Source: a virus. From it: a stretch of 64,000 nucleotides of DNA. Positions 21,357-58,239 of this stretch are shown here, one piece after another. The first letter of the stretch is position 1; each line of letters begins with the position of its first letter. The DNA lies in IMG/VR virus record IMGVR_UViG_3300045988_105372, positions 51,462 through 115,461 of that record. One strand, 5' to 3'. A program made the position numbers and the translations under genes. The notes beneath the pieces are model-generated. The model searched no databases, had not been told where the DNA came from, and saw only the letters and a program-made list of their open reading frames with translations.

Positions 21357-21838
21357 AATTTATAAATATAAAGAGTTATTGTTGAATCATTAGCAAAAAG
21401 TTCTTGGAGCATAGGATAAACTACTCCGTCCCAATCTCCTCCTGCTAATCCACATCCTAATTTATAAGGAATGCCTATCTCTGTAATCTCGTTATCTTTA
21501 CAAAAGTCTTTTAAATCTAATAAAGCTTTTTTAAGAGCATCATAATCAGTATGCCTATTTTCAAAAGGAGCTACTGATTCAGTGAAAGAATATTCTCCAA
21601 ATAAATTAGCTACGAGATTAATAGGTTCATCTCCTGTTATACATACTTGACATTTCCCTAATAATTTTTTAGAATATTTAAAATATTTACAATAATTGGC
21701 ATATCGTGTATATACGCTATTCCATTTATTTTTAATAGCCTTAGCTATACCTGCCCCCATTACTCCTAAACAATTAGTTTGATGGGCTATAAGAGGTAAG
21801 TTTGATTGGAGTAAATCTCCATTAACAACTTCTATCAT
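21344..21838 (-). CDS. macro domain (ADP-ribose-binding/hydrolysing) protein (164 aa)
   Basis: IAHQTNCLGVMGAGIAKAI ... GIPYKLGCGLAGGDW macro-domain glycine-rich motifs. Confidence 0.6.
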   Translation of the reverse strand: MIEVVNGDLLQSNLPLIAHQTNCLGVMGAGIAKAIKNKWNSVYTRYANYCKYFKYSKKLLGKCQVCITGDEPINLVANLFGEYSFTESVAPFENRHTDYDALKKALLDLKDFCKDNEITEIGIPYKLGCGLAGGDWDGVVYPMLQELFANDSTITLYIYKLCNN

Positions 21839-23388
21839 ACTAATGTTGAATTTACACGTTCACGAATTTCAGAAAGAGAATATTCTCTTACTAATTCTCC
21901 ATCTACAAAGACTGTTTTAAGACAACCTTGCAGTTCTGCATCCTTGGTCTGCTGGTCATAAGCGACATACTTACCATCCTCTTTTTCAACTCTTATAAGA
22001 CCTTTGAGAGAGTTCTTTGTTCCATCATCAGTCTTTGGGTGCTTATAGATTTCTATAAGTTTACCATTAATGGTGCATGCGGTCGCTTTAACTGCGAAAC
22101 CCAAAGAATCTCTACTCTTAAACTGATAAGTATAAGATCCAATACCTAGAACAAGATTACAAGCTGCCATATGAGCGTTTTCCAATCTAGCATAGATATC
22201 ACGCTGACGCTCCAGAGTAATAGAATCTCCATAAAGCAATCCAACCTTGGTACTTGGATAACGATAGTCATTTACAGTAGTATTCCATCCAAAGATTTTT
22301 CCTAGCATATAATATGCTCCATAGTACTGACCTTCAGATACTTCTACATAATGATTTTCATCATCGTCCATAAATGGATTGAAATCACAGTAATACTTAC
22401 CTTCTTTCATAGCAGTATGATAGTGAGGATTTGTACGAAGACCACAAATAATGTCTACTGGATCACCACTATCAGGACGAATTACTACTCGACCAACACG
22501 TTTCATAATATCTGCCTTAAGCTTAGGCAAGAATTTCTCAACTACCTGCCAAAAATCCCAAGTATCAGATACTATTGAGATAATACCTGTTGGATATAAG
22601 TCATTAATAAGACGGCGGTATGTTTCAATCTCACCATCCTCACCTCCTGCGCACATTACTGAATGTTCCGAAGCCGGAACAGTTGCAGCTACAAGTTCTT
22701 CAGTAACATTTGCATTGTAATAATGTTCTACTGCTTCAATAGCAGGAATTGTTTCACTACCACAGAATGAAGTCATATGAGCCATACCGGAGATAATAGC
22801 AGCATCAAGTCCTGCCATACCTCTCATTGAGAAATCGTGACAAGAGAAACCTAGATTTACTTCCTCTGGGAATCCAGTCTTTCTAGCATGTTCCATAAGT
22901 CTCTTTTTATAGAGACGAGCACTTGTTGCAGAAGTACAAGGGAGCCATAGAGTACAACTAATTAAAGTTTCCAAGTAATTAGTCAACCAGAAGAAATCAG
23001 GAAGAGTGTTCTTAATAGTCATCATAGGTACTCTTATAGGACAGATAGAACCTTCAGGAAGAGCTTTAATTTCAATAGGAAGATACCCCAGATCATAAAG
23101 TTCTTCAATATGCTTTGTCCCAACCTGGTTAAGGTCTACAAAGTTACCTACACGATAAGCAAATTGCTTAATAGCTTCTTCCTTAGGAAGAGCAAACCAT
23201 TTGTTAAATTCCTCTATCAAATACTTCTTTACAAAGTACTGAATACCAAATACTACAGAACCTTCTGTAGCTTCTGGGAAGTAACGATTACTTCTAGGAG
23301 TCCAGTTACTATAGACCATTTGTGTACCCTCTGGGTACATACGATGATGACCAAGCTTGTAGCCATCAGTTGCATTAATAATTTCCAT
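21835..23388 (-). CDS. nadV: nicotinamide phosphoribosyltransferase (NAMPT/NadV) family protein; candidate nicotinamide ADPR transferase (Namat)
   Basis: 517 aa; N-terminal NATDGYKLGHH...YSNWTPRS and overall length typical of NAMPT family. Confidence 0.65.
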   Translation of the reverse strand: MEIINATDGYKLGHHRMYPEGTQMVYSNWTPRSNRYFPEATEGSVVFGIQYFVKKYLIEEFNKWFALPKEEAIKQFAYRVGNFVDLNQVGTKHIEELYDLGYLPIEIKALPEGSICPIRVPMMTIKNTLPDFFWLTNYLETLISCTLWLPCTSATSARLYKKRLMEHARKTGFPEEVNLGFSCHDFSMRGMAGLDAAIISGMAHMTSFCGSETIPAIEAVEHYYNANVTEELVAATVPASEHSVMCAGGEDGEIETYRRLINDLYPTGIISIVSDTWDFWQVVEKFLPKLKADIMKRVGRVVIRPDSGDPVDIICGLRTNPHYHTAMKEGKYYCDFNPFMDDDENHYVEVSEGQYYGAYYMLGKIFGWNTTVNDYRYPSTKVGLLYGDSITLERQRDIYARLENAHMAACNLVLGIGSYTYQFKSRDSLGFAVKATACTINGKLIEIYKHPKTDDGTKNSLKGLIRVEKEDGKYVAYDQQTKDAELQGCLKTVFVDGELVREYSLSEIRERVNSTLV

Positions 23389-26370: not shown

Positions 26371-26740
26371 AAATTAAATAATAAGATTAAATAATTGGAG
26401 GCATGTATAATCTACAATACTGATTAGCATACCAAGTCCAACCCTTCTTAAATGCTTTTAAAGTTCTTTTTAAAATTTTCATCATAATAAATCAAATTTA
26501 AAGTTTAACTTATAAAATATCTAGGAGGAGAGTTTAAAAAATTAAGAATCCCAGGTAAATCACCCCTGTTAGAGACATGGTCTCTATTTTTATTATTTAG
26601 GATTCTATAGGAATGCAAAAAACCATCGAATCATTCCAGTTCGTAGGTTCTACGACACCTAATAGGCGAGTATGCATCGTTGAGAGGCACCCTATAAGTT
26701 ACGTTGCTCCTGTAACTAGTATTCTAGAGCTTTATCATAG

Positions 26741-26818
26741 TGTGAGATGTGGGAATCAAACCCACGCAAGCCTTCACATTGGAAGTGTGATGTGCGCCTT
26801 CAACTACACTAATCTCAC
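26741..26818 (-). tRNA. tRNA-Gly(UCC)
   Basis: manual cloverleaf: acceptor GTGAGAT/ATCTCAC, anticodon arm TCACA-CTTCCAA-TGTGA, T-arm GTGGG-TTTGATT-CCCAC. Confidence 0.6.
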
Positions 26819-26830
26819 ATTGTTTAATAG

Positions 26831-26904
26831 TGGAGCGTAGGAGATTCGAACTCCTAAGAATGCCTGCGTGCAAAGCAGGTGCTGACCATTTGAGCCGACG
26901 CCCC
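26831..26904 (-). tRNA. tRNA-Ala(UGC)
   Basis: acceptor GGGGCGT/ACGCTCC (G3:U70 present), anticodon arm CCTGC-TTTGCAC-GCAGG, T-arm TAGGAG-TTCGAAT-CTCCTA. Confidence 0.7.
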
Positions 26905-26914
26905 AAATTGGAGA

Positions 26915-27391
26915 TTACTCTCCAGTTAATTGTTTTATTTTAAGTTTAGCTTGTGTTAATTTATATATTAAATCAGATATAGTATTTTTATTATCTTTAA
27001 GCTGCTTTCTAAGACCTTTAATAGCTAATTTCATGCTATTAAAGTCTTTCAAATTATTTGCCATAGATTCTAATTCTCTAAAAGACTTAGTATCATCAAA
27101 TAAAGATATATTAACTTTAGCTCTTAACTCTCTAATTTTAAGATTCTGTTTCTCAATCTCATTTTCTAAAGACTGAATCTTATTATTTAAAGATTCTATA
27201 CCAAGTCCATTTTCTAATTCATCTATATAGGATTCTAATTCTCCGATTTTTTGTTCTAATCCAGCATAATGCTTTTTTCTTTCAGCATCATACTCTTTAA
27301 ACCTATTTATTTTGCTTTTTAAAACAGCTATAATAAAATCCTTTTTATCATAAAAGTTTGCGTCAGATTGATAATTAAAAGTTTTTTTCAT
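26915..27391 (-). CDS. coiled-coil protein (158 aa)
   Basis: ORF track; heptad-rich LE/IE sequence. Confidence 0.45.
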   Translation of the reverse strand: MKKTFNYQSDANFYDKKDFIIAVLKSKINRFKEYDAERKKHYAGLEQKIGELESYIDELENGLGIESLNNKIQSLENEIEKQNLKIRELRAKVNISLFDDTKSFRELESMANNLKDFNSMKLAIKGLRKQLKDNKNTISDLIYKLTQAKLKIKQLTGE

Positions 27392-27413
27392 ATTATTTAT
27401 TTTTTTTAATTAG

Positions 27414-27485
27414 TTGTGGGTATTGGACTCGAACCAATGACCGTTTGCTTATGAGACAAACAAGCTACCACTGCTACAACCCACG
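27414..27485 (-). tRNA. tRNA-Met(CAU) (C1:A72 mismatch)
   Basis: anticodon arm TTTGT-CTCATAA-GCAAA, T-arm ATTGG-TTCGAGT-CCAAT. Confidence 0.6.
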
Positions 27486-27494
27486 ATATTAAAG

Positions 27495-27566
27495 AGCTTC
27501 AAGTAGGATTTGAACCTACGACCCGCACTTTACAAGAATGCTGCACTACCACTGTGCTATTGAAGC
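27495..27566 (-). tRNA. tRNA-Thr(UGU)
   Basis: acceptor GCTTCAA/TTGAAGC, anticodon loop CTTGTAA, T-arm GTAGG-TTCAAAT-CCTAC. Confidence 0.65.
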
Positions 27567-27712
27567 TTAAATAAAGGCGAATATGGCATTAGACGGGCGA
27601 ACTATCGTGACCATATTCTAATAATACATTGAGCTATCAGGCATACTCGTGGATCGCCACCGCTACCTCTAACAACCGCCTAGTTAAATGCTAGGTCCTC
27701 TCCATTATTTGC

Positions 27713-27788
27713 GGAATATAAGGGACTCGAACCCTTAGTTTTACTAGAGTGACAGTCTAGTTCCCTTACCAACAGGGCTTAATACTCC
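27713..27788 (-). tRNA. tRNA-Asp(GUC)
   Basis: anticodon arm CTAGA-CTGTCAC-TCTAG, T-arm AAGGG-TTCGAGT-CCCTT, acceptor GGAGTAT/ATATTCC. Confidence 0.65.
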
Positions 27789-27799
27789 ATGTGTCTTTG

Positions 27800-27880
27800 C
27801 GCCTAGACTAGGATTCGAACCTAGGAACCTTTCGGGGCAAGTTAACAGCTTGCTGCCGTTGACCACTTGGCTATCTAGAC
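27800..27880 (-). tRNA. tRNA-Asn(GUU) with unusually long (11-nt, CCCGAAAGG mini-hairpin) variable region
   Basis: anticodon arm GCAAG-CTGTTAA-CTTGC, T-arm CTAGG-TTCGAAT-CCTAG, acceptor GTCTAGA/TCTAGGC. Confidence 0.5.
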
Positions 27881-31204: not shown

Positions 31205-32758
31205 TTATACATTTACATTGGTGTTTTCTACATCGCCATTAACGTTAACATTCTTATTAACCTTAGCATCAATGGTGTTAGCCTTCATAATGTCTGCCAT
31301 ATCTACACCTGTGGCATCTTTTACAATGTCACGAGTCTGCTTAATAATAGCAGGTACATTACCAGAAATACCAGAAGCCTCAGAACCATTAGTTCCATAA
31401 ACTGTCATATTGCTAATCTTACTCATAGGTTCAGCAATATACTTAGCCATATCAGGAAGAACTTTCTCATTAAGTTTAGAAAGCATGTCAATTACAGCAA
31501 TAGAGCCATACTTACTGTATGCTTCAGCCTTCTTCTGCATAGCCTCAGCTTCTGCAAGACCCTTAGCCTTCACACCTTCAGCTTCTGCCAAAAGTTTAGC
31601 TTTAGTACCTTCAGCTTCTGCAGTCAAGGTCTGTTGAGTAGCATATGCTTCAGCTTCACCCTTAGCACGAATACCTGCTGCCTCCTGCTCCTGAGAATAA
31701 CGATTAGCTTCAGCCTTAGCTTTTACAGCCTTAGCAGTTTGCTCTGCTTTATAAGCTTCAGCCTCAGCCTCACGCTTCTGCTTCTCCAAAGCAGCCTGAG
31801 CATCAATTTCTGTCTGATACTTGTCAGCATCAGCCTTAGCATTTACATCTGCAAGATACTCATTCTGCTTAATCTTAATCTTCTCCTCAGACAAGGTCTG
31901 TTCTTTACGAGTCTTCTCAATATCAGCATCTACAGTCTTGATATTAATAGTTTTCTGCTGCTCTTGCTGCTGAATTTCATATGCGGCATCAGATTCAGCC
32001 TTCTTAATATCAGATAATCTCTTCAGTTCGGCTCTCTTAATAGCTAATTCATTATTACGTTCAGCAATAATGGTGTCAGCCTTTACTCGTGCTTCATTAG
32101 CCTCATTGTCAGCCTCAGCCTGAGCCTTAGCTACATCTCTATCAGCATTAGCACGGGTAATCTTAGCATTCTTCTGAATAGCTGCTGTATTATCAGCTCC
32201 CAAATCACGGATCAAGCCTTTCTCATCAGTAATATTCTGAATATTGCAAGACAAAATCTCAAGACCTAACTTAGTCATATCAGGAGCTGCCTTCTTCTGA
32301 ATTTCATCAGAGAATGCATCTCTATCAGTGTTAATCTTAATCAAGTCAAGAGAACCTACTACTTCACGCATATTACCCTCCAAAGAATCTTTCACTTGAG
32401 CTGCAATCTGCACAGAATTCATATTCAAGAAGTTCTTAGCTGCAAGTCTAGTGCCTTCTGTATCAGGTTTTACCCTAACTTTACATACGGCATCTACCAT
32501 TACATCCAAGAAATCATGAGTAGGAACTGGTTGTGAAGTCTTAACATCAACTGTTACTTGACCAAGATATACTTTATCTAATCGTTCAAGTACAGGAATT
32601 TTTACTCCACCACCACCGATAAGTACTCGTGGCTCCTTACGAAAACCTGAAAGAATGTACGCCATCGAAGGAGGAGCTTTAACATACATTGTAGCAATAA
32701 TAACAAGCAGTACAATAATAACGACTGCGATAACACCAATAAGAACTAAATGTTCCAT
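31205..32758 (-). CDS. flotillin-like SPFH/band-7 domain protein with N-terminal TM helix and long Ala/Glu-rich coiled coil (517 aa)
   Basis: TM helix LVLIGVIAVVIIVLLVIIA, SPFH-like region, EAEA/KAKA coiled-coil repeats. Confidence 0.55.
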   Translation of the reverse strand: MEHLVLIGVIAVVIIVLLVIIATMYVKAPPSMAYILSGFRKEPRVLIGGGGVKIPVLERLDKVYLGQVTVDVKTSQPVPTHDFLDVMVDAVCKVRVKPDTEGTRLAAKNFLNMNSVQIAAQVKDSLEGNMREVVGSLDLIKINTDRDAFSDEIQKKAAPDMTKLGLEILSCNIQNITDEKGLIRDLGADNTAAIQKNAKITRANADRDVAKAQAEADNEANEARVKADTIIAERNNELAIKRAELKRLSDIKKAESDAAYEIQQQEQQKTINIKTVDADIEKTRKEQTLSEEKIKIKQNEYLADVNAKADADKYQTEIDAQAALEKQKREAEAEAYKAEQTAKAVKAKAEANRYSQEQEAAGIRAKGEAEAYATQQTLTAEAEGTKAKLLAEAEGVKAKGLAEAEAMQKKAEAYSKYGSIAVIDMLSKLNEKVLPDMAKYIAEPMSKISNMTVYGTNGSEASGISGNVPAIIKQTRDIVKDATGVDMADIMKANTIDAKVNKNVNVNGDVENTNVNV

Positions 32759-34150: not shown

Positions 34151-34182
34151 AAAAACAAATAATAAAAACAGTTCTATGAACT

Positions 34183-34300
34183 AGTGGAGCATTGGAGAGT
34201 CGAACTCCAGTCTTGCATATTTGCATCAAAACGTTCTTACAGCATAGGTTTTAAAGACTATCCTTGTCTGTTAGGGTTGACAAGATTAGCATTGCCAACT
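34183..34300 (-). ncRNA. tRNA-like element: perfect T-arm TGGAG-TTCGACT-CTCCA and 3' acceptor-like ATGCTCCA but no canonical D/anticodon arms
   Basis: manual inspection; lies in 650-nt non-coding region. Confidence 0.25.
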
Positions 34301-34646
34301 TCCACCACTCTGTTCCTAAAGTATACAGAGAACTAATAAAGAAATAAAAGAATAATGCACCTTTCCGTTCCCAAGCAAGTGCTGCTCGGTTTCTTAGGCT
34401 GCAATAGCGTAAGAAACAGGAGTCATATTGATAACTCTAGCGATTATTGTTTTGTTGTCTCTCCAACTGTCTTGCTGTGTTTCTTATCTCCTATACAATC
34501 AAAACCACGAATGCCCCAATTTAAAAGAGTCCTAAGTTAGAACTCTTTTATAAATTAGTGTCTACCACGTAAATAATTGTAATTATTATACCAATCATCT
34601 GGATCTATTCTATCTTCATTATCCATAATTTAAAACTTAATTAATG

Positions 34647-45668: not shown

Positions 45669-45797
45669 CTGTTTTTGAGTTTTTGTAAGTCCTCCGACTT
45701 ATTAAAGTTTTCGCACAATTTTGATAAGAGCTCTACTTTCACAAGCAAAACTCTTTTATTTTTAACAACTTATAAATTAAAATAATGATAGAAAAAG

Positions 45798-45869
45798 GAA
45801 ATGCGGACAGATTTGAACTGCCAATCTTCTACTCTACGATAGACGCTCTAGCTATTGAGCTACGCATTT
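45798..45869 (-). tRNA. tRNA-like gene with 4-bp anticodon stem and 8-nt loop UCGUAGAG (canonical acceptor AAATGCG/CGCATTT, D-arm GCTC/GAGC, T-arm GGCAG-TTCAAAT-CTGTC)
   Basis: manual folding. Confidence 0.4.
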
Positions 45870-47512: not shown

Positions 47513-47703
47513 AATTTATCTATAATTAATGTGTTAATAATCTATTTAAATAATAGGCGATTTTCACTGGTTATATTTAAACTATTCCATTGTCCTCAGC
47601 TATCTAACGTTCTTTCTCTTTTTAACCCAAATGATTAATTTTAAGGTAATTACGCTATTTAATAGAGTCGCTGAGAGTTGTTTAGTACCTATTTATTAAT
47701 TAG

Positions 47704-47776
47704 TAGAGGATGACAGAGTTGAACTGCCTATTAGGGAGTCAAAGTCCCTCGTGTGAAACCGTTACACTAATCCTCC
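47704..47776 (-). tRNA. tRNA-Gln(UUG)
   Basis: acceptor GGAGGAT/ATCCTCT, anticodon arm AGGGA-CTTTGAC-TCCCT, T-arm GGCAG-TTCAACT-CTGTC. Confidence 0.65.
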
Positions 47777-47826
47777 GAATAAAATACTATTCTCACGAAC
47801 CATATTTTATATTACAAGTATGAATA

Positions 47827-47917
47827 AAGCGGAGAAAGAAGGATTCGAACCTTCGAGCCATGTAATATGACTAACACCTTAGCAGGGTGCCACTTTCGAC
47901 CACTCAGTCATTTCTCC
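47827..47917 (-). tRNA. tRNA-Ser(GCU), type II with long variable arm
   Basis: acceptor GGAGAAA/TTTCTCC, anticodon arm GCACC-CTGCTAA-GGTGT, variable arm ~18 nt, T-arm GAAGG-TTCGAAT-CCTTC. Confidence 0.7.
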
Positions 47918-47922
47918 AATAA

Positions 47923-47950
47923 AGCTTCCTATCTTCACAGACAAGAAGCC
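47923..47950 (-). promoter_or_regulatory. hairpin with conserved loop CTATCTTCACAGAC (family 1) immediately 5' of tRNA-Ser
   Basis: stem GCTTC/GAAGC; loop identical to 48115-48128. Confidence 0.5.
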
Positions 47951-48029
47951 TAACAACTCTTTAACGTTATAAAGTCCGCTGACTTTATATTTTAAACATT
48001 AATCGTATTAGTTTTTTAAATATGGAAGA

Positions 48030-48103
48030 GTAGCACTAGCGATGCTCGAAATCGCCTTTGGATCTTGAAAGAATCCCGTCCTAACCAGCTAGACGATAGT
48101 GCC
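48030..48103 (-). tRNA. tRNA-Glu(UUC)
   Basis: anticodon arm GGATT-CTTTCAA-GATCC, T-arm GCGAT-TTCGAGC-ATCGC, acceptor GGCACTA/TAGTGCT. Confidence 0.65.
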
Positions 48104-48108
48104 AAGTA

Positions 48109-48136
48109 GATTCTCTATCTTCACAGACTGAGAATC
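48109..48136 (-). promoter_or_regulatory. hairpin with conserved loop CTATCTTCACAGAC (family 1) immediately 5' of tRNA-Glu; different stem (GATTCTC/GAGAATC)
   Basis: loop identical to 47929-47942; stems not homologous but complementary. Confidence 0.5.
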
Positions 48137-48178
48137 TCGTGTATTACAAATGAATACTTTTAATAAATTAAAAATTAA

Positions 48179-48252
48179 TGGTGCTCCCTGACAGTACTGA
48201 CCTGTCTTCCCGAAATTAAAAGTTTCGTGCTTCACCTTAAAGCTTAGAGAGC
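48179..48252 (-). tRNA. tRNA-Lys(UUU), CCA encoded, atypical T-loop GUCAGUA
   Basis: acceptor GCTCTCT/AGGGAGC-A-CCA, D-arm GCTT/AAGC, anticodon arm CGAAA-CTTTTAA-TTTCG. Confidence 0.55.
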
Positions 48253-48296
48253 TAATTTATAATCTTATTTTGCATAGAATTTTATTCTTGTATATA

Positions 48297-48371
48297 GTGG
48301 AGATACGTGGAATCGAACCACAATCTCGGGATTTTCAGTCCCGCGCTCTGACCTTCTGAGCTATATCTCCA
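48297..48371 (-). tRNA. tRNA-Phe(GAA)
   Basis: acceptor GGAGATA/TATCTCC, D-arm GCTC/GAGC, anticodon arm CGGGA-CTGAAAA-TCCCG, T-arm TGTGG-TTCGATT-CCACG. Confidence 0.75.
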
Positions 48372-48478
48372 TAGCCCACATTTCTATAAAGGAGAATAGT
48401 GGTAACACCTACCTATACTAATAAATTTATTAGTCAGGATTTATCCAAACACACTAACAATATATCAAATTAAATTTG

Positions 48479-48561
48479 TACGGTAGAAAGGATTCGAACC
48501 AATGACCTTCTCGAAATGACCTATTATAAAAGAGATGCTCTAACCACTGAGCTACTACCGT
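48479..48561 (-). tRNA. tRNA-like gene (83 nt) with canonical acceptor/D-arm but anticodon stem TCTC/GAGA enclosing 19 nt (contains direct repeat AGGTCATT x2)
   Basis: manual folding; T-arm region ATTGGTTCGAATCCTTT identical to 48992..49072. Confidence 0.4.
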
Positions 48562-48616
48562 AAGTACTAGTTTATATCGGAAAACTAGTAAAACGTTAAC
48601 ACATTATTATGGAAAC

Positions 48617-48967
48617 TTAAAAGCCAAATGAAAACATGGTATTTGCGGAAGTACTAAGAGTTACATAAGGAATTTTATTTCTTACTGTAATAAAGACAAT
48701 AAAGCGTCTTCCTGTATTAACCTCTCCACAATTATGGATTTCTACTCCATCTTTCATTTCAGAAGAGTATATTTTTAATACCATTTTACCAAACTTACTA
48801 TTATTAAAAGTAATAGTTTTTCTAGCTTCATTATATACTACTGAAGTTTTAATGTAAAATGGGTCACTCCATTCACCATCTTGATAAACAGTGATAGAAC
48901 CATAATTAAACGCATGAGCTATTGTAGTTAATACAATAAAACTCATTAATAAAATAATCTTTTTCAT
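48617..48967 (-). CDS. secreted protein with signal peptide (start trimmed to MKKIILLMSFIVLTTIAHA)
   Basis: ORF track 48617..49015; upstream 16 codons would overlap tRNA-like gene. Confidence 0.45.
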   Translation of the reverse strand: MKKIILLMSFIVLTTIAHAFNYGSITVYQDGEWSDPFYIKTSVVYNEARKTITFNNSKFGKMVLKIYSSEMKDGVEIHNCGEVNTGRRFIVFITVRNKIPYVTLSTSANTMFSFGF

Positions 48968-48991
48968 ATTACTCAATCTTTTTAATGTTAG

Positions 48992-49072
48992 TACGGAGTA
49001 AAGGATTCGAACCAATATAACCTCTCTATGAATTGTGGAAATGAGGTGCTCTAGCCATTAAGCTAACTCCGT
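48992..49072 (-). tRNA. tRNA-like gene (81 nt) with anticodon stem ACCTC/GAGGT enclosing 20 nt; paralog of 48479..48561
   Basis: manual folding. Confidence 0.4.
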
Positions 49073-49077
49073 ATATG

Positions 49078-49152
49078 TGGTCCTAATGCGGCTCGAACGC
49101 ATAACATCGAATTTAGAAGATTCGTACTCTAATCCAGTTGAGTTATAGGACC
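49078..49152 (-). tRNA. tRNA-Arg(UCU)
   Basis: acceptor GGTCCTA/TAGGACC, D-arm ACTC/GAGT, anticodon arm CGAAT-CTTCTAA-ATTCG, T-arm ATGCG-TTCGAGC-CGCAT. Confidence 0.75.
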
Positions 49153-54747: not shown

Positions 54748-55236
54748 ATTGTTAATGTGTTAAATTTATATTCATAGATACCTAATAACGTACAACTGTT
54801 ACTAGGTATTTCGTCCAGCCTCATCAGTATGAATTTTATAGTCTCCTGGTTGACTAAACAATTTCTCTTACTCCTTGTTTAAGGGAAGCCTCTCTTTTAG
54901 CACCGAGGTTATCGCTTTAATAAATAATGTAGAGTCCTTCAACACTTACTATCCCCTCCACTAATTGTCTTTACGCTTTCTTACTTCTAAAGTCTTTTTA
55001 ATACTTTACCAGTAATACTTTCAATGTGTTACGACGTGCTAAATACTGCCTGTACAAACCTATAAAAGGATAAACATCCGTTCTACTATTTAGCTATATA
55101 CTAGGATGATTTTTCAACTTAATTTAAAACATATTAGATAGGAACAGGTTTTACACAATACCCTGTATTACTTTCCGACTGTAGTACGGCAACCTATAGC
55201 TAGATATATCCTAGCCAGATTTTTTAGATTAAACAC

Positions 55237-55767: not shown

Positions 55768-56070
55768 TTATCTACAAATATCAATATCCATATCAGCCCC
55801 TCGATTTGCTTCAAACGCGTCCCAATCAAAACCTTCTTTTGCAACTTTTAAACTATGCTCTACTTCAGTTGCATAAGATTTAAGTTGTTTATAGAATGTA
55901 ATTTTACCGGTGTGTGTTATAGACTGTCTGTATAGTTTATAGCTACGTTCAGGATGTTTTGTAGCCTCTCTTCTTCCCCATTTAGTTAGTTGATGAGGAT
56001 TGAGTCCTATTTTACACATTGTCAAATCATCACCAACAATTGTGTATACTACAATATAAAAATACTGCAT
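55768..56070 (-). CDS. T5orf172/GIY-YIG-related domain protein (100 aa)
   Basis: FYIVVYTIVGDDLTMCKIGLNPHQLTKWGRR resembles T5orf172 domain. Confidence 0.45.
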   Translation of the reverse strand: MQYFYIVVYTIVGDDLTMCKIGLNPHQLTKWGRREATKHPERSYKLYRQSITHTGKITFYKQLKSYATEVEHSLKVAKEGFDWDAFEANRGADMDIDICR

Positions 56071-56313
56071 AACTTTATACGATTTACCTTATACTATCGC
56101 GAGGTTTTTAAATGAATATTAAGCACTTTAGTTTTAAGACCTATAAACCACGTTGAGGTATGCTTTGCGTTATAGGATTTCGTCTAAAGTAAACTTTAGA
56201 CAGGGATTTCAACCTATGGAATAAAAACCTTTTTGTTTGTTTTATTTTATTTGTGTTTTGTTATTTTTAGTAAAACATCTTACAAAGAATAAAAATATTA
56301 TTGTATAAAATTC

Positions 56314-56515
56314 TTATAAATTGTTTGATGTGATGATGATTTTTGGAGTGATATATAAGTTGGTTTTAGTGAGAGAGATTGGGAAATTGAGGAAAGGTTT
56401 GTTTGATGGATGGGAGTTCGTGTGCACACAAACTCATACCAATCCATACAAACAACTAACCTTCCTCACCCAATCCCAACTTATCCCCCACCAATTCCAA
56501 CTATCTCTCCAAACA
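56314..56515. repeat. long imperfect inverted repeat: C-free arm (56314-56418) and G-free arm (56425-56515) around perfect palindrome GTGTGCACAC (56420-56429)
   Basis: base composition and reverse-complement similarity checked by eye (GGAGAGATAG...ATTGGGTGAGGAAGGTTAGTTGTTTGTATGGATTGG vs GGAGTGATAT...ATTGGGAAATTGAGGAAAGGTTTGTTTGATGGATGGG). Confidence 0.6.
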
Positions 56516-56689
56516 GCATATTTGACCACGATAACTTTATCATTTTCAATGAGCAACATAAAAATTCCAACAATTTGTGTCGGAAGTTGAACATTGTAGA
56601 ATTCCAAAGTTTCGAGATCAACAAGCTTATTTTTTCCATAAACTCCCTTTATAGTTCTGAACATATACAAAAATACAAAGAAATTTATA

Positions 56690-56727
56690 AAAAAAATTTT
56701 AAAGGAGAGAGATTACTCTCTCCCCTT
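56690..56727 (-). terminator. rho-independent terminator (AGGAGAGAG...CTCTCTCCCCT + U-run) after 56732..57145
   Basis: 9-bp GC-rich stem, A-run on plus 56690-56703. Confidence 0.55.
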
Positions 56728-56731
56728 TTCT

Positions 56732-57549: not shown

Positions 57550-58029
57550 ATGAATAAATTAATTTTAATTAAAACAAATGTTAATATGAAACAAATAGAA
57601 TCAATTAAAGTTGGAGTGGGTGGAGAGATATTATCAGCTGAAGTTAAAACTATTAAAACTGTTAGTGCTGAACAATTCTGCCAGATATATTTAAGAGATA
57701 ATGAAGAATTTTATAAGTTATCTAAAGCAGAGTCTAATGTATTAGCTGTTTTATGGTATACTTCTAATTATTATGAAGATAAAGATAGGGCACTTCCAGG
57801 AAATAAGATTTCTTTAGATGAAGAACTTAGAGATACTATTAAAATTAAAACTAACTTAGCTGCTGGAACTATACGTAATACTATTACTTCTTTAGTAAAG
57901 AAAAAGATGTTATTAAAAGATTCTAGATATAAAGCTGTTTACTATTTAAATCCTGAATACTTTTTTAAAAGTAAAATATCTGATAGAACTCAAATTATAA
58001 AAAATATAATTGAGTATAAGTTTATTTAG
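57550..58029 (+). CDS. putative winged-helix DNA-binding / RepL-like replication-regulatory protein (159 aa)
   Basis: first gene of a short plus-strand block; weak resemblance to RepL-type proteins; tentative. Confidence 0.4.
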   Translation: MNKLILIKTNVNMKQIESIKVGVGGEILSAEVKTIKTVSAEQFCQIYLRDNEEFYKLSKAESNVLAVLWYTSNYYEDKDRALPGNKISLDEELRDTIKIKTNLAAGTIRNTITSLVKKKMLLKDSRYKAVYYLNPEYFFKSKISDRTQIIKNIIEYKFI

Positions 58030-58239
58030 TAATTGAATTTTTAAAATTTTAATTTTAATTTCTTAAAATATTAACTTTTACAAAAATTAACTTTTAATAT
58101 TCTCTACCTCGACTATATTACTCGTGTAATCAAAAAGAGATATTAAATGAATAAAGAACAACTAATACAAAGTATTAAAGACCTTCCTGATTAGTATAAT
58201 ATAAATTTATAGGTTATTGATAATGTAATTCATATAACC

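Follow-up and report, generated by a model that had tools for sequence, protein, structure and literature searches.

A conserved small phage gene whose tail avoids C and whose 3′ untranslated tract avoids G: a possible RNA signal at a transcript end

Comparison with related phage sequences identifies a long strand-asymmetric inverted repeat, in the 64,000 nucleotides of phage DNA analysed here (the window), as the 3′ end of a small minus-strand gene together with the untranslated tract that follows it, and the base composition conserved in both parts suggests an undescribed RNA signal that ends or insulates the transcript of this gene. A preliminary description had placed the repeat in 660 nt of non-coding DNA. 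That placement is refuted: by its conservation, an open reading frame of 76 codons (ORF76; 56434–56664, minus strand, ATG at 56664, stop TGA at 56434–56436), which encodes the 76-aa protein MFRTIKGVYGKNKLVDLETLEFYNVQLPTQIVGIFMLLIENDKVIVVKYAVWRDSWNWWGISWDWVRKVSCLYGLV, is a real gene, and the whole right arm of the repeat is made up of its last 26 codons. What appears to be new is a gene tail and a 3′ tract written in complementary three-letter alphabets; the kind of element to which they would belong, an mRNA 3′ element with regulated access of a termination factor, is known.

The case for ORF76 as a gene is made at the protein level. In a search of 5.8 billion proteins, 39 protein clusters matched ORF76 at 71–97% identity, several of them with hundreds of members. 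For nucleotide comparisons, 26 distinct versions of the gene were taken from public phage and metagenome contigs; the product is 76 aa long in 25 of these variants and 77 aa in the other, 1-nt indels are found among variants in the non-coding arm of the repeat and none in the coding arm, and in codons 1–50 variable third positions outnumber variable second positions by 37 to 12, a pattern that is, on these counts, the signature of purifying selection on the protein. Gene order is kept as well: a gene of 133–139 aa is followed by ORF76, by a gap of about 170–370 nt and by a further gene, which encodes about 100 aa in the closest relatives and has other sizes elsewhere. The two plus-strand reading frames over the hairpin are unconserved, with open lengths of 42–93 codons among relatives; the preliminary description had set aside all the reading frames called here as artefacts, which by this comparison is correct for the plus-strand calls and incorrect for the minus-strand one. 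Scans of ORF76 and eight neighbouring ORFs against Pfam and PHROGs returned no informative or significant family, and of five matches in a profile search against 1.84 billion representative proteins, four are members or fragments of the same family (one distant, P0040) and the fifth is weak and partial. The AlphaFold model of the protein is poor (pLDDT 62, pTM 0.34).

The window is AT-rich phage DNA (30% GC) with tRNAs and a tmRNA, and its relatives are human gut contigs of about 95–183 kb. We infer that the host belongs to the Bacteroidales from the similarity of one gene, the NAMPT gene of the window, which is closest to the NAMPT of crAss-like Bacteroides phages. Scans of 185,579 bacterial and archaeal genomes for ORF76, and for the neighbouring element A described below, found zero copies and so gave no prophage-based host.

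As the preliminary description had stated, the plus strand contains no C from 56314 to 56418 (105 nt; T42 G34 A29) and no G from 56425 to 56515 (91 nt; C39 A34 T18); neither base is missing over a longer run anywhere else in the window (runners-up of 70 nt and 84 nt, respectively), and the perfect palindrome GTGTGCACAC at 56420–56429 stands between the two stretches. The arms are likewise confirmed as imperfect reverse complements with indels, and an arm-against-arm alignment gives 63 matches, 15 mismatches (8 transitions and 7 transversions) and 16 gapped positions, or roughly two-thirds complementarity. A long bulged hairpin folds from either strand, with RNA fold energies of −85.1 kcal/mol for the minus strand (z −7.6) and −71.1 kcal/mol for the plus strand (z −5.9), and a DNA fold energy of −37.6 for the plus strand (z −5.8). 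In the minus-strand minimum free energy (MFE) fold, the longest unbroken helix is about 11 bp and bulges occur every 7–11 bp. At its apex the folds place a hairpin, GAGTTTGTG-TGCA-CACGAACTC (56414–56435, minus strand), which includes the palindrome and overlaps the stop codon; a short specific hairpin at or just past the stop also occurs in the second clade discussed below and in the folded homologues, with the exception of L018, where it is poor. The hairpin has no ribozyme core. Neither it nor element A matched Rfam 15 at the gathering score, and at E ≤ 10 the hairpin gave just chance matches to microRNA-precursor hairpins, far under threshold, and element A gave none. Adjacent C-free and G-free runs elsewhere in the window, at 57992–58110, were considered as a second example of the element and rejected: they are merely AT-rich and do not fold (z −0.9).

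Read in the sense of the gene, the 5′ arm is ORF76 codons 51–76 (VWRDSWNWWGISWDWVRKVSCLYGLV; 56437–56514, minus strand), a C-free segment with 44% G and six TGG (Trp) codons, so that the G-free arm of the plus strand is the tail of the gene and the stop codon falls on the 5′ strand of the apical hairpin. The C-free arm of the plus strand is the reverse complement of the 3′ untranslated tract, 105 nt without G and with 32% C (56314–56418, minus strand), which begins 15 nt past the stop. This asymmetry of composition is kept in all 26 variants. Their last 26 codons contain 0–4 C (median 0) and 35–44% G; the 105 nt from position +15 past the stop contain 0–2 G (median 0), with a C content of 31–40% in 25 of the 26 and 23% in L018; and the G-free run begins at a median of 15 nt past the stop, between +9 and +17 in 24 variants. 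The peptide tail has a fixed part, with W52, W56, W58, W59, W63 and W65 near-invariant (six UGG codons within 14 codons, inside the arm predicted to pair with the 3′ tract), and 24 of the 26 variants end in UGA. Its variable residues exchange freely (DS/KE/RE/ES at some positions, N/S/K/E/G/R at others, with a minority of Q or T), and C-containing codons are seldom used despite these changes. C makes up 0.7% of third positions in the tail compared with 14% in codons 1–50, and G 41% compared with 19.5%.

Mismatches between the arms tell the same story. When, across the family, the 3′ arm was reverse-complemented and aligned with the 5′ arm under symmetric scoring, 328 purine-transition mismatches were counted, of which 176 would be G:U pairs in the sense RNA and 152 G:U pairs in the antisense RNA, and just 42 pyrimidine-transition mismatches, which place a C in the 5′ arm or a G in the 3′ arm. 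With so few of the latter against so many of the former, drift of U:A pairs to U:G is barred, although an RNA helix would tolerate such a change. Taken with the third-position frequencies, these counts mean that there is selection on nucleotide composition beyond that on the peptide alone, and the rule followed is no C in one arm and no G in the other. The preliminary description had also pointed to the many G-U pairs that the structure allows as RNA, which is true, but the wobble data in themselves pick no functional strand (176 versus 152); sense and antisense MFEs are similar across homologues too, and the choice of a strand by G:U counts or by these energies failed.

Whether the pairing itself is specific depends on the control. 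Whole-sequence shuffles destroy the asymmetry between the arms and therefore overstate the hairpin, and we consider their z-scores misleading; they were replaced by shuffles of single arms, in which the asymmetry of composition is kept. By this measure the long bulged hairpin claimed in the preliminary description remains strongly non-random in the window (native −81 versus −52 ± 4.8 kcal/mol, z about −6), and close relatives give z of −2 to −4.7, whereas the divergent lineages L015/L014/L044, L018, L034, L005 and L012 range from +1 to −1.7 (+1 in L018 and about −0.5 to −1.7 in the others). Arm-shuffled hairpins keep −45 to −55 of the native −55 to −81 kcal/mol, chimeric hairpins with arms from different genomes average −57.7 compared with −59.6 kcal/mol for native ones, and RNAalifold finds double changes at 3 of 31 consensus pairs of the hairpin, which is weak covariation. 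By these comparisons the conserved property is composition, not pairing register: since G pairs with both C and U, two arms restricted to such alphabets can zip (about 90 bp, bulged) in almost any register.

More distant loci separate the two arms. In four of them (L002, L003, L006 and L007), which form a second clade, the syntenic ORF is 80 aa long and distantly similar; its tail is unrelated, of ordinary composition (6 C and 14–17 G in 81 nt) and not Trp-rich. A short GC hairpin stands at the stop, and a G-free C/A/U tract of 113–140 nt begins at +10–12 past it in three of the four loci (the G-free tract after the stop is 49 nt in L006), with weaker pairing between tract and tail. Since three of the four loci keep the tract beside an ordinary tail, the G-free tract is probably the shared, older feature, and the G-rich, C-free coding arm would be an elaboration within the ORF76 clade. 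The most distant homologue (P0040, in locus L046) has neither the G-free tract nor the C-free arm. There, a sequence near-identical to the RAGATH-1 hammerhead of L006 begins at the stop codon of the homologue; it scores below the Rfam gathering score, and a long insertion in one stem is the probable reason. A RAGATH-1 hammerhead (Rfam RF03152) is also present in the window itself, at 54772–54856, 1.3 kb downstream of the hairpin. Because the slot after the stop holds either a self-cleaving ribozyme or a G-free C-rich tract, these arrangements suggest that it serves the formation or insulation of a transcript 3′ end.

The gene and hairpin lie in a conserved block of about 610 nt (56120–56727), in which column identity among relatives is 90–100% and outside which it drops to about 50–70%. 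The block consists of a terminator, a promoter-like start, ORF76, the hairpin, an AT-rich segment, a variable A/C-rich spacer and element A. An intrinsic terminator, a hairpin with a T-run (56701–56728, minus strand), ends the upstream 137-aa gene and forms the left border of the block, with column identity of 0.98 compared with about 0.70 just upstream, and in the distant locus L046 the homologous gene is likewise preceded by the same hairpin; the terminator of the window, and the gene start at 56070 on the other side, are as the preliminary description gave them. A promoter-like start region (TTTCTTTGTATTTTTGTAT; 56665–56690, minus strand) stands directly before the ATG, with TAnnTTTG at 56668–56675 and TTCTTTGTA at 56674–56682. 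We caution that support for a promoter is weak, TAnnTTTG occurring 84 times in the window against an expectation of 92 and thus showing no enrichment, and that a scan for Bacteroides-type promoter motifs was uninformative; TTCTTTGTA, with just two exact minus-strand copies in the window (56674–56682 and 56281–56289), was rejected as a genome-wide promoter word. The second copy falls in the AT-rich segment (56270–56313, minus strand; identity up to 0.99), which contains the first Gs past the tract, repeats the ORF76 start region in TTATTCTTTGTAAGATGTTT and is near-identical to the start region of the L046 homologue, ATTCTTTGTAAAATGTTT; it is a candidate promoter or termination zone. Element A (56119–56232, minus strand) closes the block on the right, ahead of the next gene. 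Its two predicted hairpins and invariant single-stranded stretches are present in nearly all loci, the second clade included, and absent from L012 and L046, and with 2 compensatory pairs in its consensus fold it appears to be a structured-RNA-like module separate from the long hairpin.

The tract has the composition of a loading site for the transcription termination factor Rho. Published criteria for such rut sites are a 78-nt window with more C than G and Cs spaced 11–13 nt apart, and natural rut sites are depleted in G, which has been explained as avoidance of structure (PMC6407284). The minus-strand segment 56345–56422, with 30 C and 1 G, is the most extreme C>G 78-nt window of its strand in the 64 kb (z 6.7; next best 4.1), and the tract contains chains of six Cs spaced 11–13 nt and 25 YC dinucleotides over 104 positions; both the C>G window and the C spacing are thus those of a rut site. 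Having no G, the tract is incapable of G-C or G-U pairs with itself, yet it is predicted to pair with the coding arm. The long hairpin is not an intrinsic terminator, because the sequence that follows, AAAAATCATCATCAC, has no T-run. A pause hairpin within 150 nt downstream is a further property expected of a Rho-dependent terminator; the hairpins of element A lie about 100–130 nt downstream of the tract but are not GC-rich. A terminator scan of the gene strand returned 56701–56728 and one match within the ORF76 coding sequence (56565–56585), with nothing at the long hairpin. At other ORFs of at least 50 aa, in the window and in the loci of six relatives, no stop codon is followed by a G-free C-rich tract of at least 60 nt; in the loci covered, the tract is specific to a single gene and not a general terminator design of the phage.

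The reading that we put forward, tentatively and with clearly less than even confidence, is that the tract directly after the stop is a rut-like site for loading of host Rho and that the coding arm, when untranslated, masks it. The G-free, C-rich tract would begin at the edge of the footprint of the terminating ribosome, and Rho loaded there would end or insulate the ORF76 transcript before the next gene. Ribosomes translating the tail would hold the G-rich, C-free coding arm open and leave the tract free for Rho; in untranslated RNA, or after termination, the arms would zip, hiding the tract and leaving a very stable 3′ structure. The three-letter rule would follow from this arrangement, since a G in the tract or a C in the coding arm would permit an arm to fold on itself, and restricted alphabets would prevent self-structure in both arms and let the mask tolerate drift, as fits the fuzzy pairing. 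On this view, G-richness would largely account for the six TGG codons of the Trp-rich tail, consistent with the absence of such a tail from the second clade. Because the predicted pairing hides the proposed rut site, Rho loading of this kind needs kinetic competition with ribosomes. Weak covariation (3 of 31 pairs), the lack of a wobble preference for the sense strand, a host assignment that comes from one gene and the occurrence of the tract at one gene only count against it; moreover, Rho is not expected to stop a phage RNA polymerase, which would weigh further against Rho loading if a phage enzyme transcribes the gene. In a fuller and more doubtful form, the two segments would make up a "fuzzy zipper" switch of gut (probably Bacteroidales) phages, in which adjacent G/A/U coding and C/A/U untranslated segments pair by composition as a mutation-robust, translation-sensitive mask of a Rho tract, and in which the need of the RNA has shaped codons and the Trp-rich tail.

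An alternative interpretation is that the hairpin serves RNA processing or stability, as an RNase III substrate or a barrier to 3′ exonucleases that separates the ORF76 message from the downstream gene or, given that the duplex has one coding strand, destroys this message in the manner of lambda sib. A long and stable hairpin (−85 kcal/mol) in the sense strand of most family members, placed between two genes, is what such a role would predict, phage mRNAs are commonly cut at intergenic hairpins (the RNase III sites of T7 are examples), and self-cleaving hammerheads are found in this slot in L046 and 1.3 kb downstream in the window; but we consider this role unlikely because it requires pairing and not a three-letter alphabet, leaving the exclusion of C and G unexplained, because specific pairing falls to the level given by composition alone in several lineages, because the second clade keeps the G-free tract with weak pairing, and because the helices are broken every 7–11 bp where this class of element is expected to have about two turns of near-unbroken double-stranded RNA. 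The preliminary description had listed a replication origin, a packaging or recombination site, a structured non-coding RNA precursor and a template-like element as candidates. A structured RNA is plausible, as an mRNA 3′ end and not as a free-standing precursor. An element acting as DNA is less probable still, whether as an origin primed from an R-loop of G-rich RNA and a C-rich template, as a cruciform, or as a site of packaging or recombination that is recognised by its strand-asymmetric arms. Its asymmetry would be symmetric under reverse complement, as observed, and wobble-type mismatches without strand preference, a nucleotide-conserved block with sharp borders in a mosaic region, AT-rich sequence adjoining the hairpin and a position a few kb from the contig end in several assemblies all fit it. 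Across the 64-kb window, however, GC skew is negative on both sides of the hairpin with no origin-type switch, the flat stretch of skew at 56–60 kb, which starts at the hairpin, coincides mainly with a small block of plus-strand ORFs, and there are no iterons, the three short two-copy direct repeats being at chance level; an origin is therefore unsupported. The arms, two-thirds matched with 16 gapped positions, are poor material for cruciform extrusion and fall short of a near-perfect inverted repeat, the polarity of the plus strand (G-rich, then C-rich) is opposite to that of an origin, contigs end on either side of the locus at variable distances, and the fixed position of the tract relative to the stop (+9 to +17 in 24 of 26 variants) suits a role in RNA or translation and not one in DNA. 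A retron or diversity-generating template has no support: the repeat is inverted, where template and variable repeats would be direct and differ at A; the arms differ mostly by G/A transitions that run both ways; the conserved 610-nt block, which holds just ORF76, could not accommodate a reverse transcriptase; and the eight neighbouring ORFs gave no significant Pfam family.

It is also conceivable, though very unlikely, that the repeat is a functionless, decaying inverted duplication of the 3′ end of the gene, free of C by virtue of a Trp/Gly-rich tail in an AT-rich genome. C-free codons exist for every tail residue (W, G, V, I, R, K, D, E, S and N), relatives show weaker complementarity than the window, as decay would predict, and a shuffled tail stays open with a chance of 0.09, which is not negligible. 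However, at synonymous third positions of the tail C is 20 times rarer, and G commoner, than in the N-terminal part of the gene, C-containing codons remain rare while variable residues change, and the tract is G-free in lineages diverged in sequence and in most of the clade with an unrelated tail, whereas a decaying copy would acquire G and C at the genomic rate. Least probable of all, and by our estimate highly improbable, is a sensor of Trp codons or of the nascent peptide, in which the speed of the ribosome, and with it the exposure of the tract, would be set by charged tRNA-Trp or by a Trp-rich arrest peptide, after the fashion of the trp leader or TnaC. The six near-invariant tryptophans (W52, W56, W58, W59, W63 and W65) fall precisely within the arm that would mask the tract, and the stop is UGA in 24 of 26 variants with the tract beginning at the edge of the terminating ribosome, but TGG is also expected from a G-rich, C-free alphabet and may be a by-product, the second clade lacks a Trp-rich tail, the neighbouring genes are unlinked to tryptophan and have no family match, and the protein bears no likeness to known arrest peptides. 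A search for the alternative terminator/antiterminator pair and Trp-related downstream genes of an attenuator found none.

Among known systems, the proposed Rho tract resembles the leaders in which access to a rut site is regulated, such as the tna operon of E. coli with its TnaC peptide, the mgtA and corA leaders of Salmonella, and CsrA-pgaA. As in Rho attenuators, a C-rich, G-depleted and presumably ribosome-free tract of about 80–100 nt lies right after the stop of a short ORF, and access to it is predicted to hinge on competing RNA structure and on translation of the ORF. Unlike in those systems, the mask is coding sequence that would pair by composition and not as a defined helix, and the ORF is a conserved 76-aa protein gene in a phage and not a short leader peptide. 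The hairpin also recalls sib of phage lambda, whose retroregulation acts on int, and the RNase III sites of T7, in that it lies at or past the 3′ end of a phage gene and could set the fate of the upstream message; those hairpins are about 50–60 nt with defined sequence and structure, and we know of none with one arm in 26 coding codons or with a C-free/G-free rule. The RAGATH-1 hammerhead (RF03152), found at the stop codon of the homologue in L046, shares the intergenic slot and may serve there as another way to generate a transcript end, although its self-cleaving structure is unrelated. The promoter-early stem-loop (PeSL) cassettes of T4-type phages are short regulatory cassettes with a terminator and a promoter that flank small ORFs, and the block described here, with its sharp borders, is similarly a conserved cassette of a terminator and a putative promoter by a small ORF in a mosaic region; PeSLs, to our knowledge, lack a long hairpin that overlaps a coding tail. 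Finally, in synthetic nucleic-acid circuits, three-letter strands omit one base so as to have less self-structure and stay free for their partner. This is an engineering practice whose principle the hairpin arms share, and we know of no description of it as a natural element. In the literature searched, on hammerheads and Rho-dependent termination in crAss-like phages and on RAGATH-1, no earlier description of the element was found.

What had been described as 660 nt of non-coding DNA is thus to be annotated as containing a conserved small gene, and the slot after its stop codon is one that hammerhead ribozymes use in relatives. If the proposed account is true, RNA structure would here be selected at the level of base composition and not of specific pairs, and searches based on covariation would overlook elements of this kind; a requirement of the nucleic acid would override codon usage and shape the C-terminus of a protein. 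It would also give a first handle on how the transcripts of early-region small genes are ended or insulated in large uncultured gut phages.

Within the window, the conserved block of about 610 nt (56120-56727) that contains the C-free/G-free hairpin is 90-100% conserved among phages with differing flanking genes, and its borders are sharp, identity there falling to approximately 50-70%. On sequence comparison, this pattern looks like modular shuffling, with a terminator/promoter cassette at one side of the block and the structured module element A at the other.

Element A (56119-56232, minus strand), a module some 110 nt long, is nearly invariant in sequence throughout all clades and is confined to this phage group. 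It contains two hairpins, GTCTAAAGT/ACTTTAGAC, which carries compensatory changes in the related loci L025 and L044, and CCTATAA/TTATAGG, as well as invariant single-stranded stretches, CGAAA and GGUC among them. Comparison with Rfam returned no match at E ≤ 10, and element A could be either a ribozyme not yet described or an element of a 5' UTR. Next to it lies an A/C-rich, G-free spacer of (CAAAA)-like units (56230-56275, minus strand), the length of which differs among relatives in a microsatellite-like manner.

The block also holds two minus-strand copies of the word TTCTTTGTA (56674-56682 and 56281-56289), the surroundings of which are duplicated along with the word itself. The second of these, ATTCTTTGTAAGATGTTT, matches almost exactly, ATG included, the start region of the homologous gene at L046, the locus of the most distant homologue of the conserved 76-aa gene ORF76. 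Because this copy opens only a 3-codon mini-ORF in the window, it may be what remains of a gene start that was duplicated, or else a second promoter.

In the window, a RAGATH-1 hammerhead ribozyme (54772-54856, minus strand) scores 75 bits against a gathering score of 56.3 and occupies an intergenic space 1.3 kb downstream of the hairpin; another was found at positions 1999-2083 of L006, a locus of the second clade. In L046, the hairpin is replaced by a near-identical hammerhead (~789-905, located by eye) that has a long insertion in a stem and begins where the ORF76 homologue has its stop codon.

Contig coordinates of L026, L027, L030, L041, L042 and L024 show that, in several independent assemblies 163-183 kb long, the locus sits within approximately 2-9 kb of one or the other contig end; this proximity may reflect the breaking of assemblies at a hypervariable region or a nearby physical genome end.

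Elsewhere, the window encodes, on the minus strand, a NAMPT-type nicotinamide phosphoribosyltransferase (21835-23388) that shares ~62% identity with counterparts in crAss-like Bacteroides phages, and, at 31205-32758, an SPFH/flotillin-like protein. Its translation-related genes include a phage-encoded tmRNA with the tag peptide ARVINMTPVSYAIAA (34182-34517, minus strand), two tRNA arrays (26740-27880 and 47703-49152) and an odd tRNA, called by ARAGORN, whose anticodon is unassigned (45797-45869, minus strand). Relatives carry a tRNA with the amber-suppressor anticodon CUA about 1.4 kb away from the ORF76 locus (L002, 1085-1156; L003, 136-207; L013, 4585-4656), and TAG is the stop codon in some homologues of the small gene. 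The presence of this suppressor tRNA suggests that TAG is recoded in this phage group.
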